In this document: positions 7,979 to 49,000 of the stretch, piece by piece | How positions within the stretch are numbered: the first letter of the stretch is position 1 | Layout: every line of letters starts with the position of its first letter | Assembly: GCA_001001705.1 (NCBI GenBank) | Contig: LCOG01000008.1 | Location: forward strand, 1-52,776 | DNA length: 52,776 bases | Direction: 5' to 3' | Source of the DNA: Parcubacteria group bacterium GW2011_GWA2_47_26 | GTDB taxonomy: Bacteria > Patescibacteriota > Patescibacteriia > GWA2-47-26 | The notes under the pieces: generated by a model | What the model saw: the letters and a program-made list of their open reading frames with translations, nothing else | What the model was told of the DNA's origin: nothing | The model's database searches: none | Translations under genes and position numbers: made by a program

Positions 7979-8014
7979 GTCCCGTATGATTGCAAGGGGG
8001 ATGGTGTGGATAAC

Positions 8015-8048: not shown

Positions 8049-8195
8049 GGGACTGTTGCCGAATACCATTTCTACTGCAAGTTAAGAATTTTGGCTGCGA
8101 CTTTGTGAAACATTCTCAACATATACGCCGTATATGCTTCAAATGTTTCACTTCGTCTCGCTCAAAATTCTTACCTTTCGTAGAACCATGTGTCC
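8049..8195. mobile_element. MITE-like element copy 2 with a degenerate right terminus
   Basis: The first 132 nt (8049-8180) differ from copy 6 (48839-48970) at one position. Confidence 0.8.
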
Positions 8196-24481: not shown

Positions 24482-27400
24482 CTATGATTCAGCCGGGGCC
24501 GGGGGTGACTCAACTGCCGGTTCAGGAGCTGGCTCTGGCGCGGGAGTAGGCGCGGATTCTTGAACTGGCGCGGGAGTAGGTTCTTCTGCTATGGGAGCTG
24601 GAGTGGAGGCCGATTCAGAAGTTGTCGCAGTCTCAATCGGTTCTGGCGCTGGCACTGCGGGAGAACTTTCCACCGGCGCAGAGGCTAGCGCAGGTTCAGG
24701 CGCAGGCGCAGGAGTAGGAGTAGGCTCCGGCGTAGAAACAGGCGCAGAGGCGGGTTCAACTGCTGAAACTGGGGCTTCTTCCGGTTCAACCTCAACTACG
24801 GCGGATGCAGGCTCTTCCGCTACACTTACGTCATCTTGGGGCGTAGCCCGGCCTGCCACAACCGAAGTTGTGGCACCGGGCGTAGCCGAAGGATCCCGCG
24901 ATTCTTGAGTGGCACGGGATTCTTCACGCTGTTCAGAATGACTGTCTTGGGATGTGGAAGATGCCGGAGCAACAGAAACACTGCTTGCGCTAGAGGCCGG
25001 CGCCTCACAAAGCGCTTTTACAAACTCGCCATTGCGAATACTTACACAATACTTCTCGCCCGTTGCCTCATCATACATAATCAACCGCTTCTTTACTTCC
25101 AAATCTTGAAGCATCATATTTCCGCTTGAATCAATGCTCCAAGCACCCGAGGAACTGGCAATGGCCAGCACGCCGGTAAGCGCGCGGCCATTCATATTGC
25201 CGTCAAAAGCGCTCGGTGCCGCAGCAATAGTCCCATCCGACGCTTGCGAGACCGTCAACTGATCCGGACCGTTCCAGAAGGTATTTATTACCTGTACCAT
25301 AACTTGCCCGCGCTCTTCATCAAATTGCGCAAGAGCCATACCAATCACGCGCCCAGAACGCGTAGCTTTCATGGCATGCCCTGGAGTTGAAGAGGTGGTG
25401 AGAAAATCCCCAACTTGGATGGATCCATTCTCGCGCGTCACCTTGACGGGTACGCGCCCGACAAGCGCGACGGGCAGTGGATTATCCTTATCCTCAATAT
25501 TATAGCCCGCAGAAGTGAAGTCACTGTAATTGTCAGAAACAATACCTACCACCGGTTCTTGATATGGTGTACTGGAACGCACCGTCTCTACAATGCGATG
25601 TCCTTGGGTAGTAACGACTTCACGAGTCCCGGGAACCACAATATCTCCGTACGAGACGCCTTGCGCTACAGGAAATTGCTCGGCATAGTCAGCCGTAGGA
25701 GCGCCGTTACAATCCTTAATTGCTTCGGTAGCCGCGCCATTAGTTTCATGACACAACGCATACGGCCCGTTAGCCCCTGTCGCCGTTGCAAAAGTGGCAA
25801 TCACCGTACCCGCCGTTTCCACAATAAACGCGCCCGCATTCACATTAATCGCATCATCCCAGCCGTCGCCGATTATCAATCCCGTCTCCGTCCCAGAACC
25901 GGCAGAAGTCAAAGCCGCAATGTTGACGCCATTAAGCGTGCCGGCGGCTGGACCAGAAGTGGTGGGTGAGACAATGTTTATCCCGGACATGGTACCACCG
26001 GTCACAATGGCGCCGGAGGCGGGAATAAGCACGCGCAGACCATCAGCCGTGACGGTGTCGCCGGTATTTTGGGTAATCACGGGCATGGTCACATTAAGAC
26101 CGCGCCAGGAAAGCACCGCGGCATTGGCGCCGTCAGTAACGCTTAACGCGCCGGCGGCAGAGATATTATATCCAGTGTAAGTGGTGGTGACAGCAGTATC
26201 AGCGGCGGTGAGTGCGTTCATGATGATGTTCGTACCCGTGATATCACGATCAACAGTGCCAGTGAGATTAGTATCAAAATCAAATTGAAGCCCGATTATA
26301 TCGCCAGCACCCTGTGTAGTAGCGCTCGCAAAATCCGCGTTGATGAGCGTGCCGAAAGTCCATTCGGTTTCTAGAGCAAAATCAAGGAAAGTACCGGTGG
26401 CTTGCGGAGTGATTGAAACGTCACCAAGTTCAGTAACCTTGAATACTAAAACCCCCGCGCCCGACAATTCATAATTATTGGCAATTATTTGGAAATCAGC
26501 TGTAGTTGTATCATTATTAGAGTCAATCGCTAATTTAAGATTAGCAGAACTTGCTCCTATAACTCCACCTGCTCCATTTAAGCCCCACTGATCTTGACTT
26601 GATACTTGCAAACCATATGTACTTAAAGTATTTCCACCAACTACAAAGCCGTCGGCTGTTATCTTACTTGATGCCGCGCCATTCACGGCAAAACCTATCT
26701 GGTTGGCCGCTACGGAATAGATGCCTGTGTCAGGGTCGCTTATAAACGCCAAACTAGGCAAAGCCGCGGTACCCGCGCCAAACCCAACATTCCCAGCAAA
26801 ACCAGCCGCCCACGATCTTGTGAGCGTCATGTTTGCCCCTTGCACTGGGTCATCTACATATAACGTATAAGCATCTGATATTGTCAGCGCGCCATCCGCA
26901 TTTCCCGCATAGGTGGGGCCTTGGATGAATACCTCTCTCTGCGTCGCCAGCGGCCCCGCTCCCGCCGCCCAGGTTTTCGTAGCGGAGAAATTAAAGTTTG
27001 CGCCGATATTTTCGGTGGCCGCGGTAAGATTTGTATGAGCCGCGCCTGTTAAAGTTAAGAAGGTTGCCAAGCCAGAAGCTATAGCTCCTTCTGTTAAAAT
27101 AAAATTCCGAGAACTTGCCCCAATTTGTAACGCCGTGCCACCACTGTGAATAATTCTAAATTCATCAGGGGAATTATCTGCAACGATAGACCATGTTCTC
27201 GAACTATTCGTTAATTCAATAGTGAAATCAGAAGCTCCTGTATAGGTTTGAGTGCTTGCCGTGAGAACACTGCGCGCGACATCATTCACACTGAACTCAA
27301 AAGTCGCTCCTGTCGGTACATTGAAATGGAGCTGGTTTGTTGCGTCTGCGTCGCGGCCTATTGAATAAGAAGCCGCTACCATTGCCACGCCGGTATCAAA

Positions 27401-30400
27401 TCTAACATGGTCATTCATCTCTAAAATACCTGTTGCCATGTCAAAAAGAGTCACACCGGCAAAGGCAAGGGTATCTCCCGTCTGGGTAATCGTGGCATCG
27501 CTGCTATCCCAGTTGATGACTGCGCCTTCGGCCAGAAACAAATCGCTGAACGCCGTTCCTGACACGCCAAGCGCGAGGCCGTCATCGGCATTGGGTTGAA
27601 GATTCGTCGCATTGAGAACAAGCTCATTAGTCCCGCCGATGCCCACCTCCAAAGACGTGGTAGCATTGATATCTGTGTCCCACCCAGAACCGACTGAAAT
27701 AGCGGTTTCCGTTCCTGAGCCGGCGGAAGTAAGGTTGGCGATCGCAATGCCTGTAAGAGTGCCCGCGGCAGGCCCTGAAGTTGTTGGCGCAATTATATTA
27801 ATTCCGGTTGATGTTCCGTCGGTTGTAATCGCGGATGAAGCGGGGAACACGATACGAATTGCATCCGCGGTTACCGTGCCCGTGGTTTGAGTGATGGCTG
27901 GAATTGTAATTGTCTCACCTCGCCAATTGATAGTTCCCGCGGCGGTGCTTTGAATTAAACCGGCGCTACTTGTGATTGTAATGCCACTCAATACCTCGGT
28001 GCCGGTTCCAGTGCGCGTAGCGCCATCAGTAGTAAGCGCGATATTGATCATATTCCGACCATTCGCGCCGGTTAAATTAGTGGCCAAATCAATATTTAGG
28101 CCCGTGAGCGCGCCAGCACCCTGCGTATTAGCTGACTCATACGAAACGTCAATAAGCGTGCCTGTGTCATTCATGCTTTCAAAATCCATCATATTTGCCG
28201 TAGTGATACTTGTGCCCGTAATAACAATAGCGGCGCCATCTCCACTGGGAACAAACGACGTCCGTCCATCGCTAAACATTGTAAACACATCCGAGTCTGT
28301 AGCATCCGCGTTTTGACTCGCACGTATGAACCCGGCCGAGGCATCTTCTGAAATCATATGCAGGAAATAGCCATTTGTAGAATTAGTGTCGTTGTATTCA
28401 AGACGAAGCAAAGCTGAATCAAATTGTGACCATGTTCCAGTTTTTTGAATTACCATGGCCGCTTGTCCAGCGGTGTCAAAGGTATTGGCATCACGAATAC
28501 CAATCCCAAAAGCTGATGGTGTGACAGCCTCTGTAAGACCGGCGCCGAACGCTCCGCCGACATGCAAGCCCTCATCCCACCCGGTTCCAATTGAAATAGC
28601 TGTTTCTGTGCCCGATCCAGCGGAGGTCAGGTTTCCGATTTGCATGCCATAAAGCGTGCCGGCCGCCGGACCAGAGGTTGTGGGTGAGACAATGTTTATC
28701 CCGGACATGGTACCACCGGTCACAATGGCGCCGGAGGCGGGAATGGTTACTTTCAGACCATCAGAGGTAATGGTGCCGGCGGTTCCGGTAATGGCAGCCA
28801 GTGTAATGTTGGTTCCAATTGAACTTACTGTACTACCGGCAAAATTTGCAGTTGCCACAGGAGCAGTAATATTCAGACCGCGCCAGTTGATAGTTCCAGC
28901 GGCGGTGTCTTGGGTAAGCGCGCCGGAGGCGGAATTATTGTAGGCAATGTAGGTTGTGGTATTGGCCGCGGATTGAGTGAGCGCGTTCATAACCACATTC
29001 GTGCCAGTGATATCGCGGTCAGTGGCGCCGGTAAGGTTGGTGTCAAAGTCAAACTGCAAACCAATGATGTCTCCGGCTCCTTGGGTGGTTGCGCCCCCAA
29101 AATTGGCGTTTATGAGCGTGCCTAAAGTCCACTCGGTTGCGAGTTCAAAATCAAGAAAGGTTCCCGTAGTATTGGGATCAATCGCAAGTGCACCGGAAGT
29201 TTCGGCAATAAAGGTGCCAGAATTAATGTTGATCGCGTCGTCCCAACCGGAGGCAATAGCTAAGCCTGTGGCCGTAATGGTGCCGGTGGTTTCGGATTGA
29301 GTCAGGGTGCCGATGTTTAAGGCATTTAAGGTAAGGGTGCCGGCCGCGCTAATAGTACCGGTAAAGGCATCCACGTCAATCACATTGAAGGTATCCGAGG
29401 CATTGACTGAAATTGAGGGGGTGATATCAATGACATTGCCCGAGGCATTAGAGCCGGTGAAAGTGAGCTGGAGCGCGTCAACGCCGTCAGTCGCTGAAGT
29501 GTCCCCGGAACCAATAGTCACGATGTCGGCGGTAGGGGTGGCATCCCCGTCAAAGTTAATGGTTTGTCCATCAATGATTTCCACATTAAAGTCACCCCCG
29601 GCAACGGCCAGAGAGTTCGCGGCATGGGTGAGGGTGACATCGCCATTATCAAAGTTGATGACTCCACCCGAGGCCAGGAAAAGATCTGACCACATTAAGG
29701 AGGTGGTGCCTAACGCATTAGAGTCGGTGGTGGCGGGTGAGAAAGCCGAGCTGGTCAGGGTTAGTTCATTGGTACCACCAATGCCGATCTCAAGTGAGGT
29801 GGTGGCATTGATATCCGTATCATATCCTGTACCAATAGAAATACCAGTGGTAGCAGAGTTGGTGGTGGTGGTGTTGGGTAAAGATAACCCAATAAACGTG
29901 TCAGCATCAGTGGATTCTGTCCAGTTGATTACCAAGCCATTGACGGCGTCTACTGCCGCATCGGCCGTAGAGATGGCGGAAAGATCCAGCACATCAATAG
30001 CGTTGACTGAAGTACCGGAAAACGCTACGACATCCCCAGCATTGGCACCAGTTTTAGTCACGTTGGCCGTATCTCCAGCATCGAGCGTCACATTAAAATC
30101 TCCGCCTGAAACATCAAGATCGCCGTTTGAGATAAGGATGTCGCCATCGGTAAGGACTAAAGAATCTACTCCGTCTCCACCGCCGTTTAAGGTGACTTGG
30201 CTGTCCGCGTCTGTATCTATAATCACGTCACCTGTGCCTCCAGGAGTAATAGTCAGAGATTCGTTTGTGCCTGTTGTAATAGAACCGTTGCCAAAGGTTG
30301 TTGTGGCTCCGGCGATGAATGAACCGTCCGTATAGACATTGCCTTCAATGCCTGCAATGCCAGCCACAAAAAGATCGTCTCCATCAAGTGTGAATCCAGC

Positions 30401-32095
30401 ATTGTCAAGAGTTTCTACCGCCGCGCCGACTGTCAGATTGTTGGTAAGGTTCAAGTCTCCGCTGTCTGTGAATGTCGCAAATGCAACGCCTCCATCCTGA
30501 ATGATGAAATCTGTTGTTGTTGAGAGATTGAAAACAAGGTCTCCGGCGGCGTCCACTGTAATGGTTTGACCGTTTGTATAGGCCTCGTCAAGAGTGACGC
30601 CGCCGTCAAGCGAGGTGAATTCGGCTGTTGAAATAAGTGTACCGGCAATGTCAAAAAGATTGGTGAATCCTCCGCCCGCGTCAATCACTTTAATGGCCGC
30701 GCCAATCGCGTCATCTAAATCTGAATTATCAATGACAAGAGAAGCATCAAGGCCTTCGGTTGAAGCAAGGTTATCAATGTAGATGCCATATTGGTCTGTT
30801 GTGCCAGAAGTCGTGTCAGAAGCTGTTGAGTTTATGGTCATCGAGTTTTCTGCCGTGGCGTTGGTAAGGGTTCGAGTTAGAGTAACGGTCTCTCCCGCTG
30901 TTCCAGTAATAGATAAGGCGGCGTCAAGAGAAGAAGCGTCAATAAATTTGTCGAAATCCAGCGTGTCGTCGGCAATATCCGCGTTCTCAATATTGGTAAT
31001 GGAATTCCCCGAACCGTTTGCGTCAAAAGAAACTCCTGTAATCGCGCCTGTTGTTGAGATGTCCCAATCCGATGAATCAATAGCCACTGTGCTCAAGTTG
31101 TTGCCAATAGAAATAGCTGTTGCTCCAGTGAGCGTCAGACCGCCAGCGCCTGTAATCAGGCCGTCGGCTGTGAGCGCTCCGATACCGGTCATGATCCCTG
31201 TGGCATCAATATCCCAATCCGAAGAGTTAACGGCAACCGTGTCGCCCCCATCGCCGAGCAACACCGCGCCTCCGGGTGTGAGAGTAAACGCTCCAGTTGT
31301 GGTGAACGTAGTTGATGTTCCATCAAATGCGATATCTGTATCAGCGATTGCGACATTGCCGTTTGCATCAAGAAGACCGCTTGCTGTCAAAGTTCCTGTT
31401 GCAGTAAGCGCATTGTTCACGGTGCTTGTTCCAGTGGCCGCACCCAGCGATAGCGTGGTAGCCGCTCCGCCGATATTCAAAGCAGTCGCTGTGGTATTTG
31501 CAAGATTAAATGTAGTCGCTGTTGTTGTAAAATCTCCGCCGTTTACCGCAAGATCAGCGCTGGTGGTAATGTTACCCGTAACCGTAATCTCGCCCGAAGC
31601 GCCGAGACGCAAAACATTATTAGCCGAGGTGCCCGCGTGCACACCATCCACAGTGTCGGCATTAATAGCAAATCCTGATGACGCGATTCTCTGCCGCGGC
31701 GCTAACGTTTCTGAAGTTGCAAAAATATCGCTTGTTGAAATTTCAACGCGCAAATATATGCTTGAATCCGAATCAAAATCAAGCGTTAACGCGTCAAACC
31801 CCGCGCTAGTGTCGCCAATAAGCGCGTTAAATACGCCATTCTGCACAGTAAGCCCGACAATCGCCGGATTTCCAGCGGGCCAAAGCTGGGTACCTCCAGT
31901 CAAATCGGAATAGATTGAAAATCGGAAATAAAAGGTCTGGCCGGAAGAACCTCCCAATAAATTACCACTCGCATCAGTAAGCCGTCCTTGATAGCTAATT
32001 ATACTTGGCGGCGCAGCCAAAGAAACCCTGAAAATTCCAAAAGTTAGCATCAGGGCTATTACCGAAAATGCACTTACAAACACAATCCTGCGCAT
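24482..32095 (-). CDS. giant (2537 aa) repetitive surface protein, fibre or adhesin-like
   Basis: N-terminal anchor or signal, then PPSIISYQGRLTD...LWP...VQNGVFN. Three modules of about 200 aa each end in SPTTSGPAAGTL..LTSAGSGTETAISIGTGWD. Tail-fibre-like strings are present (LEIGIGGTNEL...LGTTSLMWSDLFLA). A beta-rich C-terminal domain (ADYAEQF...PVALVGRVPVKV...GDFLTTSSTPGHAMKA) is followed by a P/A/E/S-rich tail. Confidence 0.85.
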   Translation of the reverse strand: MRRIVFVSAFSVIALMLTFGIFRVSLAAPPSIISYQGRLTDASGNLLGGSSGQTFYFRFSIYSDLTGGTQLWPAGNPAIVGLTVQNGVFNALIGDTSAGFDALTLDFDSDSSIYLRVEISTSDIFATSETLAPRQRIASSGFAINADTVDGVHAGTSANNVLRLGASGEITVTGNITTSADLAVNGGDFTTTATTFNLANTTATALNIGGAATTLSLGAATGTSTVNNALTATGTLTASGLLDANGNVAIADTDIAFDGTSTTFTTTGAFTLTPGGAVLLGDGGDTVAVNSSDWDIDATGIMTGIGALTADGLITGAGGLTLTGATAISIGNNLSTVAIDSSDWDISTTGAITGVSFDANGSGNSITNIENADIADDTLDFDKFIDASSLDAALSITGTAGETVTLTRTLTNATAENSMTINSTASDTTSGTTDQYGIYIDNLASTEGLDASLVIDNSDLDDAIGAAIKVIDAGGGFTNLFDIAGTLISTAEFTSLDGGVTLDEAYTNGQTITVDAAGDLVFNLSTTTDFIIQDGGVAFATFTDSGDLNLTNNLTVGAAVETLDNAGFTLDGDDLFVAGIAGIEGNVYTDGSFIAGATTTFGNGSITTGTNESLTITPGGTGDVIIDTDADSQVTLNGGGDGVDSLVLTDGDILISNGDLDVSGGDFNVTLDAGDTANVTKTGANAGDVVAFSGTSVNAIDVLDLSAISTADAAVDAVNGLVINWTESTDADTFIGLSLPNTTTTNSATTGISIGTGYDTDINATTSLEIGIGGTNELTLTSSAFSPATTDSNALGTTSLMWSDLFLASGGVINFDNGDVTLTHAANSLAVAGGDFNVEIIDGQTINFDGDATPTADIVTIGSGDTSATDGVDALQLTFTGSNASGNVIDITPSISVNASDTFNVIDVDAFTGTISAAGTLTLNALNIGTLTQSETTGTITATGLAIASGWDDAININSGTFIAETSGALAIDPNTTGTFLDFELATEWTLGTLINANFGGATTQGAGDIIGLQFDFDTNLTGATDRDITGTNVVMNALTQSAANTTTYIAYNNSASGALTQDTAAGTINWRGLNITAPVATANFAGSTVSSIGTNITLAAITGTAGTITSDGLKVTIPASGAIVTGGTMSGINIVSPTTSGPAAGTLYGMQIGNLTSAGSGTETAISIGTGWDEGLHVGGAFGAGLTEAVTPSAFGIGIRDANTFDTAGQAAMVIQKTGTWSQFDSALLRLEYNDTNSTNGYFLHMISEDASAGFIRASQNADATDSDVFTMFSDGRTSFVPSGDGAAIVITGTSITTANMMDFESMNDTGTLIDVSYESANTQGAGALTGLNIDLATNLTGANGRNMINIALTTDGATRTGTGTEVLSGITITSSAGLIQSTAAGTINWRGETITIPAITQTTGTVTADAIRIVFPASSAITTDGTSTGINIIAPTTSGPAAGTLTGIAIANLTSAGSGTETAISVGSGWDTDINATTSLEVGIGGTNELVLNATNLQPNADDGLALGVSGTAFSDLFLAEGAVINWDSSDATITQTGDTLAFAGVTLFDMATGILEMNDHVRFDTGVAMVAASYSIGRDADATNQLHFNVPTGATFEFSVNDVARSVLTASTQTYTGASDFTIELTNSSRTWSIVADNSPDEFRIIHSGGTALQIGASSRNFILTEGAIASGLATFLTLTGAAHTNLTAATENIGANFNFSATKTWAAGAGPLATQREVFIQGPTYAGNADGALTISDAYTLYVDDPVQGANMTLTRSWAAGFAGNVGFGAGTAALPSLAFISDPDTGIYSVAANQIGFAVNGAASSKITADGFVVGGNTLSTYGLQVSSQDQWGLNGAGGVIGASSANLKLAIDSNNDTTTADFQIIANNYELSGAGVLVFKVTELGDVSITPQATGTFLDFALETEWTFGTLINADFASATTQGAGDIIGLQFDFDTNLTGTVDRDITGTNIIMNALTAADTAVTTTYTGYNISAAGALSVTDGANAAVLSWRGLNVTMPVITQNTGDTVTADGLRVLIPASGAIVTGGTMSGINIVSPTTSGPAAGTLNGVNIAALTSAGSGTETGLIIGDGWDDAINVNAGAFIVETAGTVIATFATATGANGPYALCHETNGAATEAIKDCNGAPTADYAEQFPVAQGVSYGDIVVPGTREVVTTQGHRIVETVRSSTPYQEPVVGIVSDNYSDFTSAGYNIEDKDNPLPVALVGRVPVKVTRENGSIQVGDFLTTSSTPGHAMKATRSGRVIGMALAQFDEERGQVMVQVINTFWNGPDQLTVSQASDGTIAAAPSAFDGNMNGRALTGVLAIASSSGAWSIDSSGNMMLQDLEVKKRLIMYDEATGEKYCVSIRNGEFVKALCEAPASSASSVSVAPASSTSQDSHSEQREESRATQESRDPSATPGATTSVVAGRATPQDDVSVAEEPASAVVEVEPEEAPVSAVEPASAPVSTPEPTPTPAPAPEPALASAPVESSPAVPAPEPIETATTSESASTPAPIAEEPTPAPVQESAPTPAPEPAPEPAVESPPAPAES
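24830..24942 (-). repeat. composite palindromic element translated in frame near the 3' end of the giant gene
   Basis: On the minus strand GTCATTCTGAACAGCGTGAAGAATCCC...CCCAAGATGAC, with an inner hairpin CCCGGTGCCACAAC-TTCG-GTTGTGGCAGGCCGGG (24847-24880). It encodes HSEQREESRATQESRDPSATPGATTSVVAGRATPQDD. Confidence 0.7.
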
Positions 32096-32150
32096 GTGTT
32101 GATTATAACATTTTTCATATCAAGGAGGGGGGGGGGGTACTGTGGATAAC
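32096..32150 (-). promoter_or_regulatory. putative promoter of the giant gene: GTTATCCACA box, C11 tract, extended -10, start codon 6 nt after the -10
   Basis: Minus strand reads GTTATCCACA-gta-CCCCCCCCCCC-tccttgatatgaaaaa-TGT-TATAAT-caacac-ATG. The homopolymer is 32127-32137, the -10 is 32102-32107, and no SD is present. Confidence 0.5.
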
Positions 32151-32154
32151 TTAA

Positions 32155-33204
32155 TTACTTAACAAACTCTTCCCGCGCGGCTTCCCACAATTGCGGATAG
32201 CCTTGTATCTTTAGCCGCCACCACCATTCCACGCCCCAAGCATATATTTCATCAATTCCGGTCCTGCGGGCATAATCAATCGTGCTTCTAAATTCTTCCG
32301 GCGTCAACATGCGCAACTGCTCTTCTATAGGAACATTAATAATACTGTCCGGCGCCCACACTTCTAATTGCAGTTCTGTAATAATAAACCGCGGCGCCCA
32401 TGGGCGCAGGAGGCGTCCTTTTCTTGTATAAAACGAAGGCGGCAAAGGATAGGTGATATATCCAAAGGTTGGACTCCAAACCTTGCGATACAAACTAGTA
32501 CCAACAACATCGGCAACAACTGCAGAACGCAGGCCAAAAGACAATTCTCCAGATTCGGTCATGAGAATAGGCCGGGAATCAAGAGACCGTACAAGCTCCA
32601 CTTCCTTGTGCACAAACGCGTCAGGAATCGGAGGGCAATCGCCAAACCACCCAATAAACCCTTCATTCTCAATTTGCCAAGCCGTAATATTTATCCGCCC
32701 TTGAAAATGCTGAACTACCGTAGCCATCATTTCCAGTTGCGCTTTTTCAAATTCTGGCCGCTGTGGTCCAGCTCCCAAATCCAGCATGCGTTTCCATAAC
32801 GGACGAGATTCCGGCAGCCATGTTTGCGCCCATTGCGGCGCGCGGCATTCTGGCCAGCGCGGCAGTTTAAAACCAATGGTCGGCAAAACTGTAACATTCC
32901 GTTTAGCGGCCTCATCAATCATCCAATCATAATCCGCAAAATCAAAACGGCCGCGCGTGGACTCAATCTCATCCCAATTTATGCCAATTCGCACGCTCTT
33001 GACTTTTAGGTCATCCAAAATTTCCAGATACGCTTGTTTCCAATCCAAACCGAGATACTCGGCATATGATTTTGTAAAAGTAACTCCCCATGTTATGCTC
33101 TTGGCCTGCTCAATTTCGCGCGGAAAAAAAAGATACAAACTAAAAAACAAAACCAGCGCAATCACTGCAAGCAGAACACGTTTTATCCAACGCCAGAAAG
33201 CCAT
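32155..33204 (-). CDS. membrane-anchored TIM-barrel glycoside hydrolase (clan GH-A-like)
   Basis: N-terminal TM helix. VRIGINWDEIESTRGRFDFADYDWMIDEA, WQIENEG and LMTESGE resemble the acid/base and nucleophile strands of clan A hydrolases. Confidence 0.5.
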   Translation of the reverse strand: MAFWRWIKRVLLAVIALVLFFSLYLFFPREIEQAKSITWGVTFTKSYAEYLGLDWKQAYLEILDDLKVKSVRIGINWDEIESTRGRFDFADYDWMIDEAAKRNVTVLPTIGFKLPRWPECRAPQWAQTWLPESRPLWKRMLDLGAGPQRPEFEKAQLEMMATVVQHFQGRINITAWQIENEGFIGWFGDCPPIPDAFVHKEVELVRSLDSRPILMTESGELSFGLRSAVVADVVGTSLYRKVWSPTFGYITYPLPPSFYTRKGRLLRPWAPRFIITELQLEVWAPDSIINVPIEEQLRMLTPEEFRSTIDYARRTGIDEIYAWGVEWWWRLKIQGYPQLWEAAREEFVK

Positions 33205-34630: not shown

Positions 34631-34696
34631 AACCCATCGAATTGAATCATCTAAAATGACACCTTGATTCCCTATGACATTTCCTTAACGCTACTC

Positions 34697-34732
34697 GTCC
34701 CGCATTTGGCTCGATCGAGCCAAATGCGGGAC
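34697..34732. repeat. perfect 36-nt palindrome
   Basis: GTCCCGCATTTGGCTCGATCGAGCCAAATGCGGGAC, followed by GTTTTGG on the plus strand. Confidence 0.8.
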
Positions 34733-34824
34733 GTTTTGGGAAGCATTTTATGGCACTCTCCGTATACTTCAGTGTGCAGTTCGATGTCATGATTAAATGA
34801 TCTGACACGTTCACTCATACATTA

Positions 34825-34986
34825 GGGGACTGTTGCCGAATACGCTTTCGTAACGAAAGGTAAGAATTTTGAGCGAGACGAAGCAAAAGGTATGAAGCAT
34901 ATACGCAGTATATGTTGAATAGCTTTTGCAAAGTCGCAGCCAAAATTCTTACCTTGCAGTAGAAATGGTGTTTGGCAACAGTCCCC
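34825..34986. mobile_element. MITE-like element copy 3, full length, inverted relative to copies 2 and 6
   Basis: Termini GGGGACTGTTGCCGAATAC and GTGTTTGGCAACAGTCCCC. TTAG is present on both flanks. Confidence 0.85.
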
Positions 34987-35004
34987 TTAGACAAGTCTAT
35001 TAAC

Positions 35005-40996: not shown

Positions 40997-41881
40997 TTAA
41001 TTTGATGAATTATAGTAGACCGAGGGCGCCGCGTCAAGCATAGGCCTCACGCATTGTTGCCGAGGGTGCATTGGACACATATTCACTCCTGCAGCCGCTG
41101 GTCTCACGAGAATCGTACCCGCAACCCCTAATACAATAGCAAGTGTTATAAAAACACTGGACACATCTAACTGAAAGCTGGCTTTCCAATTTGGTTTTAT
41201 AAGCCGGTCAATGCGTATGCTCAAACGTGAAGCAAAGCTAGCGGCTATACTCGCAAATTCAGGCCTTTGCACCATTTGTAAAAGAACGCCGCCCAAGGCC
41301 TGACGGCTATCTACCCGCTCATCTGCCTCTATTTCAGCCATAGTGCGATATTCAGAAATTAAATTGCGCAAAAACGGAGCAAAGAAAAAACTGTACTTTA
41401 CTGTATCCGTGACAAAAAACTTAAGGGGATGACGTTTTGCAACATGGTGCGACTCGTGCTGCAATATAGCGGCAAGCTCATCTTTTGATAAATTCCGCAC
41501 ACAATGCGCGCAAAGCGCGATTTTAGGACGCAAAAAACCAAAGGTAAATGATTCGCAATGGCTGCCGTTGAATAAAAACAATCCTTTCATTCCCTCATAT
41601 ACGCTAACATGTTTAAGCAATGTTCTTGTACGTATCAATGCGATCACTGCGTAAGTCATACCAACCAACACACCGACGCTAAACAAACCCGCAAAGCCAA
41701 GAATTGCCCAATCTCGCGCTGTTATCAAAGTATCCATAGCACAAGAACAACCCCCGGACGCGGACACGCGATCATTAACAATATGTGCCGCCGCTCTAAA
41801 CAATAAAATCTCCAATCCTGCCAGTACTGCAACTGTAGCCGCGATAGCCAAAACAATTTTTCTTTTGGCAGACCTTACCAT
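40997..41881 (-). CDS. M56-family (BlaR1/MecR1-like) membrane metalloprotease without a sensor domain
   Basis: LAAILQHESHHVAKRHPLKFF (HExxH), multiple TM helices, and a position directly after a BlaI-type repressor gene. Confidence 0.7.
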   Translation of the reverse strand: MVRSAKRKIVLAIAATVAVLAGLEILLFRAAAHIVNDRVSASGGCSCAMDTLITARDWAILGFAGLFSVGVLVGMTYAVIALIRTRTLLKHVSVYEGMKGLFLFNGSHCESFTFGFLRPKIALCAHCVRNLSKDELAAILQHESHHVAKRHPLKFFVTDTVKYSFFFAPFLRNLISEYRTMAEIEADERVDSRQALGGVLLQMVQRPEFASIAASFASRLSIRIDRLIKPNWKASFQLDVSSVFITLAIVLGVAGTILVRPAAAGVNMCPMHPRQQCVRPMLDAAPSVYYNSSN

Positions 41882-41901: not shown

Positions 41902-42063
41902 TAGACCTGTTGCCTTATAACTTTCCTGGCGTTTTTGATGCCGTTTGAGCCGAAACTAATGAAGGACGAGGAGGAATAGCTCATGCTATTTCGACGAGTT
42001 CTGAATTTGTTGCAGGCCAAATCGGTGCGAAAACGGCCGGGAGATTATAAGGCAACAGGTCTA
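41902..42063. mobile_element. variant MITE with GACCTGTTGCC termini
   Basis: TAGACCTGTTGCCTTATAA...TTATAAGGCAACAGGTCTA. The right terminus contains the TAA stop of the repressor gene. Confidence 0.75.
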
Positions 42064-42482
42064 CTGTCATTCTGATCCGCCGTTGAGGCGGAACGGTTTA
42101 ATTTCTGACGCAATTCTTCCAACTGGCGCGGATCAACCTCTTCCAGAACATCAACAAATTGCGCTATTGCCACTGATCCAAAATTGCGAAGGATTTCCCC
42201 GAAAAGCACCCTGCTCGTTTTGGCATAAAACGCATCGCGATCATAAGCAGGCTTATAAATAAAACTCCCGTTTGGCAACTCCTCCCTAGATAAATATCCC
42301 TTTTCTGTCATGCGCGTCATCACGGTCATAACCGTTGTGTAAGCCAGATCCCGCCGCCGCCCGACTATCTGCAATATATCGCGCACAGTGCCCGCGCGCC
42401 TTTGCCAAAGCGCCTCTAAAATCGCTTTTTCAAGCATGCCTAAAAGTTGTCCCTTTTTCTTGGTATTCCTAATCAAGGCCAT
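42045..42482 (-). CDS. BlaI/MecI/CopY-family winged-helix repressor
   Basis: LEKAILEALWQRRAGTVRDILQIV...AYTTVMTVMTRMTEKGYLSRE. The last 16 codons come from two repeat termini. Confidence 0.8.
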   Translation of the reverse strand: MALIRNTKKKGQLLGMLEKAILEALWQRRAGTVRDILQIVGRRRDLAYTTVMTVMTRMTEKGYLSREELPNGSFIYKPAYDRDAFYAKTSRVLFGEILRNFGSVAIAQFVDVLEEVDPRQLEELRQKLNRSASTADQNDSRPVAL

Positions 42483-42614: not shown

Positions 42615-42631
42615 TACTACAGCATGTAGTA
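42615..42631. promoter_or_regulatory. 17-bp palindromic operator candidate
   Basis: TACTACAGCATGTAGTA (TACA-N3-TGTA core). A second copy with one central change lies at 48765-48781. Confidence 0.55.
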
Positions 42632-42674
42632 TTGCCTGACTTATGTCAAATGAATCATGTGGATAACTAGCTTT

Positions 42675-48089: not shown

Positions 48090-48734
48090 CTATTTAAAGA
48101 GATTTTTTCCTAGCTTCAAAATCAACATTATCAATAGCACTACTAACAAAATACCAATCACATACCACAGTGCAACAAAGCCTAAAGCATATGCTGGGCG
48201 TGAAACGCCTAACGCGCCCATCATATTTTGGGACTGCCCCGTAAATCCGCCCATCATGCCCCCGCCCATCATGGAAGCCATCATCGGCATCATGCCCATC
48301 ATTTGATTAACACCACCGGTGGTGCCACCCATCATATTATTTCCGCTTCCCATCACACCGCCTCCTACACCAACACCTGTTTCACATCCACTCATACGCT
48401 TACCCATTGTAACATGCATAGCTTTCTCACCAGCTTCACCCATCATCTGCTGCATCATCGTATCCATAGCTTCGTGTCCTGTACCCATCATCCGTTCCAT
48501 CAAAAATTCTCCAACCAGTCCAAAATCATCATCTTTCAAATCCGTACATTGCACCTTTTTACTGCGCAACCAATCAAAAAGTGCCTCACCCGGATTTTCA
48601 GCACTAGCAAGACTGCTCCCAAGATCAATATTTTCCTCTCCGGCATGCGCACTGACACCCCCAACCATTATAAAAAAGATTGCTAAAACCGCAACACTAA
48701 TGAAAAAATTGATACCGTGCTTATATCGTCTCAT
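48090..48734 (-). CDS. Met/Gly-rich exported protein with a C-terminal TM helix (possible Cu(I)-binding)
   Basis: MMGTGHEAMDTMMQQMMGEAGEKAMH and GGVNQMMGMMPMMASMMGGGMMGG. Confidence 0.55.
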   Translation of the reverse strand: MRRYKHGINFFISVAVLAIFFIMVGGVSAHAGEENIDLGSSLASAENPGEALFDWLRSKKVQCTDLKDDDFGLVGEFLMERMMGTGHEAMDTMMQQMMGEAGEKAMHVTMGKRMSGCETGVGVGGGVMGSGNNMMGGTTGGVNQMMGMMPMMASMMGGGMMGGFTGQSQNMMGALGVSRPAYALGFVALWYVIGILLVVLLIMLILKLGKNLFK

Positions 48735-48764: not shown

Positions 48765-48781
48765 TACTACAGTATGTAGTA
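48765..48781. promoter_or_regulatory. second copy of the 17-bp palindromic operator candidate
   Basis: TACTACAGTATGTAGTA. On the minus strand it is followed by aataaga-TATAAT and the Met-rich gene start 31 nt away. Confidence 0.55.
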
Positions 48782-48838
48782 ACACAAAAGTTTTGTCTAG
48801 TCAAGCGTTGTGGATAACTTCTATGTACCCCGCCTAAT

Positions 48839-49000
48839 GGGACTGTTGCCGAATACCATTTCTACTGCAAGGTAAGAATTTTGGCTGCGACTTTGTGAAA
48901 CATTCTCAACATATACGCCGTATATGCTTCAAATGTTTCACTTCGTCTCGCTCAAAATTCTTACCTTTCGCGCACATGGCCGCATTTTTGGCACTGTTCC
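48839..49000. mobile_element. MITE-like element copy 6
   Basis: GGGACTGTTGCCGAATACC...TTTTTGGCACTGTTCC. 131 of the first 132 positions are identical to copy 2. Confidence 0.85.

Follow-up and report, generated by a model that had tools for sequence, protein, structure and literature searches.

A poly-C tract between a DnaA-box-like motif and a predicted leaderless promoter: a candidate contingency locus at a giant surface gene of a groundwater Patescibacterium

The promoter region of a gene predicted to encode a giant surface protein in an uncultivated groundwater Patescibacterium contains an unbroken run of 11 cytosines (C11), which we tentatively propose as a candidate for a promoter contingency tract like that of the Bordetella fim genes. 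This reading is drawn by analogy with that system, and we give it somewhat less than an even chance of being right. The tract lies at positions 32127-32137 on the minus strand (G11 on the plus strand) of the window, by which we mean the whole 52,776-base stretch of DNA analysed here. In the mechanism envisaged, the TGTTATAAT promoter would start transcription on the ATG or within 1-2 nt of it, giving a leaderless mRNA, while a factor, possibly DnaA, would occupy the AAGTTATCCACAG box upstream of the core promoter, with C11 occupying the stretch from this box to the -10 element. Slipped-strand gain or loss of C residues would then shift the factor on the box relative to RNA polymerase, in distance as well as in helical phase, and so turn transcription of the surface gene up or down. 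The contigs identical to the window originate in Rifle aquifer metagenomes (an ANAN16 scaffold and JGI 3300025308), and the source organism is related to Uhrbacteria. The other genes of the window are ordinary chromosomal ones, among them those for MreB, an aminoacyl-tRNA synthetase, YidC, PBP2, a Mur ligase, a PilB/T-type ATPase and a GT4 glycosyltransferase, and a Rfam scan returned tRNAs only.

The giant ORF (24482-32095, minus strand) encodes 2,537 amino acids, arranged as a signal or anchor helix at the N-terminus (MRRIVFVSAFSVIALMLTFGIFRVSLA), a conserved beta-sandwich, long fibre repeats rich in Thr, Gly, Ala, Asp and Asn, a globular C-terminal domain and a Pro/Ala/Glu-rich tail. The AF2 model places the helix at residues 2-20 with the beta-sandwich next to it. 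The ATG at 32095 is the true start of the gene, backed by the MRR and hydrophobic signal sequence that it opens, by alignment to the N-terminus of the orthologue (65-71% identity) and by the modelled helix and beta-sandwich. Searches of the protein against Pfam and NCBIfam, a PDB sequence search and a fold search returned no informative family. Its homologues, all from Patescibacteria (Uhrbacteria, Andersenbacteria, Magasanikbacteria and Parcubacteria), bear the phage tail-fibre modules Peptidase_S74 and Mtd_N, which would fit a host- or surface-recognition protein. The sequence-only reading had called this a giant surface gene, a reasonable label in view of the predicted signal helix, the beta-sandwich, the fibre-like repeats and the tail-fibre modules of the homologues, and the product is accordingly predicted to be a surface-exposed structure of the kind that contingency loci control. 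Within the coding sequence of homologous fibre genes there are G8 and C8 runs (L074, 2743-2750; L077, 4149-4156), of which the L074 run falls in the conserved N-terminal domain; these are possibly translational (frameshift) contingency tracts in relatives.

Upstream of the giant gene lies a GH42-like gene (32155-33204, minus strand), and the intergenic region from its TAA to the ATG of the giant gene measures 59 nt (32154-32096). The minus strand from 32152 to 32093 reads AAGTTATCCACAG-TA-CCCCCCCCCCC-TCCTTGATATGAAAAA-TGTTATAAT-CAACAC-ATG, or in short form AAGTTATCCACAG-TA-C11-N19-TATAAT-CAACAC-ATG, where N19 ends in TGT and so yields an extended -10. The extended box motif AAGTTATCCACAG occupies 32152-32140 and its core, TTATCCACA, 32149-32141, which is -54 to -46 relative to the predicted +1 at 32095 and 33 nt ahead of the -10. 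GTA (32140-32138) stands between the core box and C11, which covers -42 to -32, and the 19 nt on the 3' side of the tract are TCCTTGATATGAAAAATGT (32126-32108). The extended -10, TGTTATAAT (32110-32102), has TG at -15/-14 and TATAAT (32107-32102) at -12 to -7, followed by the 6-nt discriminator CAACAC (32101-32096) and the ATG (32095-32093). The layout proposed in the sequence-only reading (C11, a 19-nt gap, TGnTATAAT, 6 nt and ATG) is thus borne out, with each of its elements where that reading had put it. A possible weak second extended -10, TGATATGAA (32114-32122, minus strand, 21 nt 3' of the box), is speculative; the locus L006 of a second genome bears ATATGCA after its C10 tract at the position matching TGATATGAA. 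An in-frame TGA at 32122-32120 blocks any 5' extension of the giant ORF. Translational phase variation was considered and rejected because C11 is outside any ORF and this TGA separates it from the ATG. The plus strand at 32119-32137 reads AAGGAGG and then G9, a perfect SD-like sequence that is probably meaningless, and a plus-strand gene behind it was likewise rejected, as the ORF downstream has merely 6 codons.

C11 exceeds chance and is a genuine outlier. No other homopolymer in the 52,776-base window, of whichever base, is as long, and no other G/C run reaches 7; under a first-order Markov model 0.014 G/C runs of at least 11 are expected where 1 is observed. Long homopolymers of every base are rarer in the window than the Markov expectation, as seen in C runs of at least 6 (2 observed, 11.5 expected) and A runs of at least 9 (0 observed, 3.6 expected). 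Like the tracts of contingency loci, C11 is longer than the genome background permits, and it is a homopolymer of at least about 8 nt between an upstream putative factor site and a -10 element.

A predicted leaderless, -35-independent promoter in front of the giant gene is well supported by the sequence comparison. TATAAT at -12 to -7 puts the predicted +1 on the A of the ATG, and the -10 ends within the 6-8 nt ahead of the ATG that mark leaderless promoters, both here (TATAAT-CAACAC-ATG) and in the orthologue at locus L004 (TATAAT-ACCGCT-ATG). It is this conservation of the TATAAT-N6-ATG spacing that supports the leaderless promoter. In other members of the family the ATG follows the -10 element at 8-9 nt or at about 20 nt. 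TG at -15/-14 stands directly 5' of the consensus -10 in TGTTATAAT, which upholds the extended -10 of the sequence-only reading, with the same spacing in the orthologue, and TGn precedes the -10 in most of the homologue promoters sampled and is present in almost every promoter of the lineage that was sampled. A sigma-70 scan of the intergenic region found no -35/-10 pair, the nearest TTGnnn (TTGATA) being merely 10 nt from the -10, and the L004 promoter has no -35 either. Within the window TGNTATAAT has 2 matches against 2.6 expected, which is chance level by itself, so the promoter call rests on position and conservation and not simply on the match. The leaderless mRNA had also been argued from the lack of an SD, and that part of the argument falls away. 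SD cores precede 6 of the 50 window genes, where chance alone would give 5.1, AT content is 66% in the 20 nt ahead of start codons and 54% over the whole window, and the genome as a whole makes no use of SD; the absence of an SD before the giant gene therefore says nothing about a leaderless mRNA. Described leaderless mRNA promoters (PMC3898074, PMC3160421) share with this one the succession of TATAAT, 6 nt and ATG and the missing SD, and the spacing is conserved in the orthologue, whereas the contrast between genes without an SD and leadered genes with one is uninformative in an SD-free genome, where SD content cannot separate the two.

The absence of a -35 element bears directly on what a change in tract length could do. 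C11 had been described as overlapping the -35 position; it does cover -42 to -32, including the slot for a -35 hexamer at a 17-nt spacer (32125-32130, minus strand), but this slot reads CCCCTC, which is not a -35 element. There is thus no sigma-70 pair whose spacer the tract could fill in the manner of Neisseria porA. Since the 3' end of C11 is fixed relative to the -10 and there is no -35, a change in length cannot alter a -35/-10 spacing, and on gain or loss of C residues the slot would stay C-rich and unchanged. Only the sequence upstream of the tract, with the AAGTTATCCACAG box, would move.

The closest related locus, L004, belongs to a Candidatus Uhrbacteria MAG and has GH42-like, AAA_14/DUF4143 and TPR genes as syntenic neighbours. 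It reads GTTATCCACA-N31-TGCTATAAT-ACCGCT-ATG and contains no tract. Compared with the window, the box, TGn, hexamer and 6-nt spacing are conserved, whereas the discriminator and spacer sequences differ, and such conserved spacing with differing sequence is the signature of a spacing constraint. Closer orthologues were sought with the N-terminal 189 aa, and none exceeded 71-73% identity. A genome-contig search with the GH42-like neighbour gave one relative at 40% identity, which is not syntenic and is uninformative. Tracts are rare among the homologues. No G/C run of at least 7 was found in about 60 distinct promoters of N-terminal-domain homologues (80 metagenome loci surveyed), nor in the promoters of three further module-homologue loci, L094, L095 and L097. 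With about 65 homologue promoters devoid of it, the tract is not a family feature, and the orthologue manages without it.

A second tract is present in L006, from a genome of 61% GC (the window has 45.6%), which reads AAGTTATCCACA-N8-C10-N29-TAGAAT-N10-ATG. This C10 precedes a gene for a 582-aa signal-peptide protein with a 172-aa module 66% identical to the giant protein, and 0.010 runs of at least 10 would be expected in the locus. The Patescibacteria loci fetched, about 370 kb in all, contain no G/C runs of at least 9 other than the C11 of the window and this C10. The box and tract of L006 are about 10-14 nt farther from the best -10 (47 nt) than in the window; with this difference in geometry the two cases are not strictly equivalent.

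The core of the upstream box, TTATCCACA at 32141-32149, is an exact match to the DnaA-box consensus 9-mer. The window has 4 exact copies against 0.4 expected (8005-8013, 32141-32149, 42658-42666 and 48809-48817, minus strand), all of them intergenic, upstream of genes and on the gene strand. In 409 kb of Patescibacteria DNA, 36 distinct copies were found where 3.1 are expected, an enrichment of about 12-fold, and the motif takes the extended form aAGTTATCCACAg. In the 120 nt upstream of 183 distinct extended -10 sites, a forward box was found at 12 sites and a reverse box at just 2, and every forward box sits 21-22, 31-35 or 38-41 nt from the -10 hexamer. The 33-nt distance that results with C11 is the modal value, and that of the orthologue is 31 nt. 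Besides the window, boxes occur at promoters in L004, L006, L022, L028, L030, L042, L049, L051, L061, L067 and L072. We take the box to be a putative binding site for a transcription factor, possibly DnaA. DnaA regulates promoters through single or few boxes in Escherichia coli and Bacillus subtilis, and the sites here resemble such transcription-factor sites in being exact 9-mer consensus matches that are single, promoter-close and orientation-specific. They differ from known DnaA regulons in that the motif extends to AAGTTATCCACAG, a putative site identified by sequence match, and in being far more widespread, with a box at about 7% of the sampled Patescibacteria extended -10 promoters. The library of papers that was searched contained no report linking DnaA boxes with Patescibacteria. 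A replication origin was rejected as an explanation, as the window has its boxes singly, spread across 40 kb, and is without a dnaA or dnaN gene.

Several further features were seen around the boxes. In two of the window copies of TTATCCACA, TTGACA or TTGACT stands 4-8 nt downstream. A multi-box arrangement that contrasts with the single boxes elsewhere is found in L066 (about 2060-2090, reverse, 126-144 nt upstream of the gene start), where the cluster TTATCCACA-N9-TTATCCACA-T-ATCCACA precedes a homologue with KYITLKEAAKLSGY at its N-terminus, resembling a helix-turn-helix extension. When viral contigs were scanned for the box followed by C9, 5 matches were returned, at or below chance and in unrelated origin-like contexts; they include AAAGTTATCCACA directly followed by C9 in L089 and L090 (IMG/VR contigs, viral or plasmid-like), again not above chance, with the L090 match adjoining GGGTGTAAAC iterons in an origin-like context. 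The window also contains three copies, 88% identical, of a repeat about 135-150 nt long, two in the same orientation (8049-8181 and 48834-48970), both just upstream of TTATCCACA boxes, and one in the opposite orientation (about 34830-34990), at which the short assemblies L001 and L002 break. This repeat folds as one long hairpin (-63.7 kcal/mol, z = -7.6) with the ends GGGGACTGTTGCC...GGCAACAGTCCCC and resembles a MITE/REP element or a structured RNA, with no match in Rfam. A 17-nt palindrome, TACTACATRCTGTAGTA, occurs twice in the window where 0 are expected (42615-42631 and 48765-48781, minus strand), one copy ahead of a BlaI/CopY-type repressor gene (42045-42482), which has a BlaR1-like M56 peptidase gene (40997-41881) downstream, and the other ahead of an unannotated gene for 214 aa (48090-48734). 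It is probably the operator of the BlaI/CopY-type repressor and would define a small regulon.

The length of the tract across assemblies bears on most of the explanations that compete with a contingency locus. C11 is present in four assemblies (the window, L001, L002 and L098) within unique flanks; L001, L002 and L098 are 100% identical to the window, perhaps deriving from the same population or reads, and show no length polymorphism. Exact-protein look-ups with the GH42-like, SLT-like and giant proteins retrieved only contigs 100% identical to the window, and a scan of metagenome contigs for TTATCCACAGTA-N3-30-TCCTTGATATGAA, open to any tract length, gave 0 matches in a collection that apparently excludes the known JGI contig. 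The C10 tract is the same in L006 and L007, two identical assemblies whose independence as samples is doubtful. A sequencing or assembly error, in the run itself or in its exact length, is exceedingly improbable: homopolymers this long are error-prone, and the MEGAHIT contig L002 (ERZ27254739 k141_19240) ends at window position 32122, 5 nt past C11, but the tract recurs in four assemblies within identical flanks, and that of an independent genome in two. The end of the L002 contig could fit length heterogeneity and equally a failure to sequence through the homopolymer. The single length throughout, together with the many homologue promoters without a tract, also counts against a contingency locus, as does the fact that the association of tract and box was noticed post hoc, and with an extended -10 the upstream sequence may matter little. 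In favour of the contingency locus are the C11 in a homopolymer-avoiding window, the modal 33-nt distance of the box and the C10 in a second genome. The same uniform length and tract-free homologues suit a neutral product of slippage, in which a C-rich seed after the box expanded by chance and was tolerated, with neither a role nor meaningful variability, the tolerance arising because an extended -10 promoter needs no -35. The box at 8005 in the window, with TTATCCACA-CCATCCCCC, offers a plausible C-rich seed, and L004 keeps the promoter layout free of any tract. Neutral slippage is possible but on the doubtful side, given that a genome purging homopolymers so strongly should make an unmaintained 11-mer short-lived and that a second long tract stands at the same relative place in an unrelated genome of 61% GC.

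Selection might instead have fixed the length. On such an account C11 would be a static element, either a rigid poly(dG)·poly(dC) spacer or a protein-binding site, which may hold the box at its modal 33 nt, exclude contacts of sigma region 4 or the alpha-CTD, or both. The box distance is exactly the modal one and close to the 31 nt of the orthologue, and the identical length in all assemblies agrees with this account; yet any sequence could act as a spacer, as L004 illustrates, and the most mutable of sequences is an implausible choice for a fixed spacer in a homopolymer-avoiding genome, so that we regard a static element as decidedly unlikely. More improbable still is that the giant gene is transcribed mainly together with the upstream SLT-like and GH42-like genes, TGTTATAAT being incidental or a minor internal promoter and the C-run belonging to an mRNA spacer, with at most a possible role as a C-rich, Rho-loading-like or structural element. 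A search for an intrinsic terminator between the GH42-like and giant genes found none, which makes read-through transcription into the giant gene possible, and some transcription may consequently bypass the promoter described here. SD-free translation also means that internal initiation needs no special signal, and the chance-level frequency of TGNTATAAT points the same way. Transcription of this kind is difficult to reconcile with the conservation of TGnTATAAT-N6-ATG in the orthologue, which has a different upstream gene (AAA_14), and with L006, whose upstream gene is divergent, so that its spacer must hold a promoter. Farther upstream, between the EamA-like and SLT-like genes, lies a perfect 38-nt palindrome (34696-34733, CCCGCATTTGGCTCGATCGAGCCAAATGCGGG plus flanks), probably a bidirectional terminator hairpin.

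If C11 is a contingency tract, it has close parallels among characterized systems. Promoter homopolymer switches are textbook knowledge in Neisseria, Bordetella, Haemophilus, Mycoplasma and Campylobacter. The porA, opc and fetA promoters of Neisseria meningitidis have recognisable -35 and -10 hexamers, and the tract between them alters their spacing. These poly-G or poly-C tracts share with C11 the position of a homopolymer in a surface-protein promoter, and in Neisseria slippage alters promoter strength, whereas the present promoter has no -35 hexamer and the 3' end of its tract is fixed 19 nt from the -10. The vlp genes of Mycoplasma hyorhinis, a lipoprotein multigene family, have a poly-A tract in the -35/-10 spacer that switches variable surface proteins. 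Both are promoter homopolymers in reduced-genome, surface-dependent organisms, but here there is one giant fibre gene and a poly-C upstream of the -35 slot. The closest likeness is to fim2, fim3 and fimX of Bordetella pertussis and B. bronchiseptica, where about 7-19 C lie between an activator site (the "fim box") and the -10; this C-stretch overlies the -35 region and, by its length, determines how far the activator sits from the -10 and thereby how much transcript is made (PMC1891110). The window likewise has a C run between an upstream site and the -10 of a putative surface-structure gene, over the -35 region. In Bordetella there is experimental proof of the BvgA activator, of polymorphism in length and of an effect on expression, while the present case is known from sequence and has a DnaA-box-like 13-mer, a predicted leaderless mRNA and an environmental Patescibacterium as its setting. 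Within the candidate phyla radiation, the one example of slipped-strand-type hypervariation that we found is a Gracilibacterium gene for a large extracellular protein with a hypervariable in-frame 9-mer repeat (PMC6851277). There a tandem repeat in the coding sequence alters the sequence of the protein, whereas C11 is a promoter homopolymer. A search of the candidate phyla radiation literature for a promoter homopolymer switch found none.

A broader reading, which we consider unlikely, would make AAGTTATCCACAG a phylum-wide, orientation-specific, promoter-proximal element serving a global activator, either DnaA or a factor specific to the lineage, with the poly-C tract acting as a stochastic switch in at least two lineages. 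The box would act at three separate spacings to extended -10 elements (about 22, 33 and 40 nt), and a hypermutable poly-C would lie between box and core promoter of host-attachment fibre genes. No simple-sequence contingency locus would have been described in the candidate phyla radiation before it. The widespread box is a more original by-product of this analysis than the tract itself and, should it prove real, would give Patescibacteria their first proposed regulatory motif of a general, promoter-proximal kind.

Patescibacteria are ultrasmall and mostly episymbiotic, and they need surface structures to find and hold host cells. To our knowledge, the diversification of such surface proteins is known only from diversity-generating retroelements and one reported case of a coding repeat. 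The contingency hypothesis is testable on reads, as public metagenome time series exist for the site. If it is true, environmental uncultivated bacteria, too, would use contingency loci of the type known from pathogens for bet-hedging.
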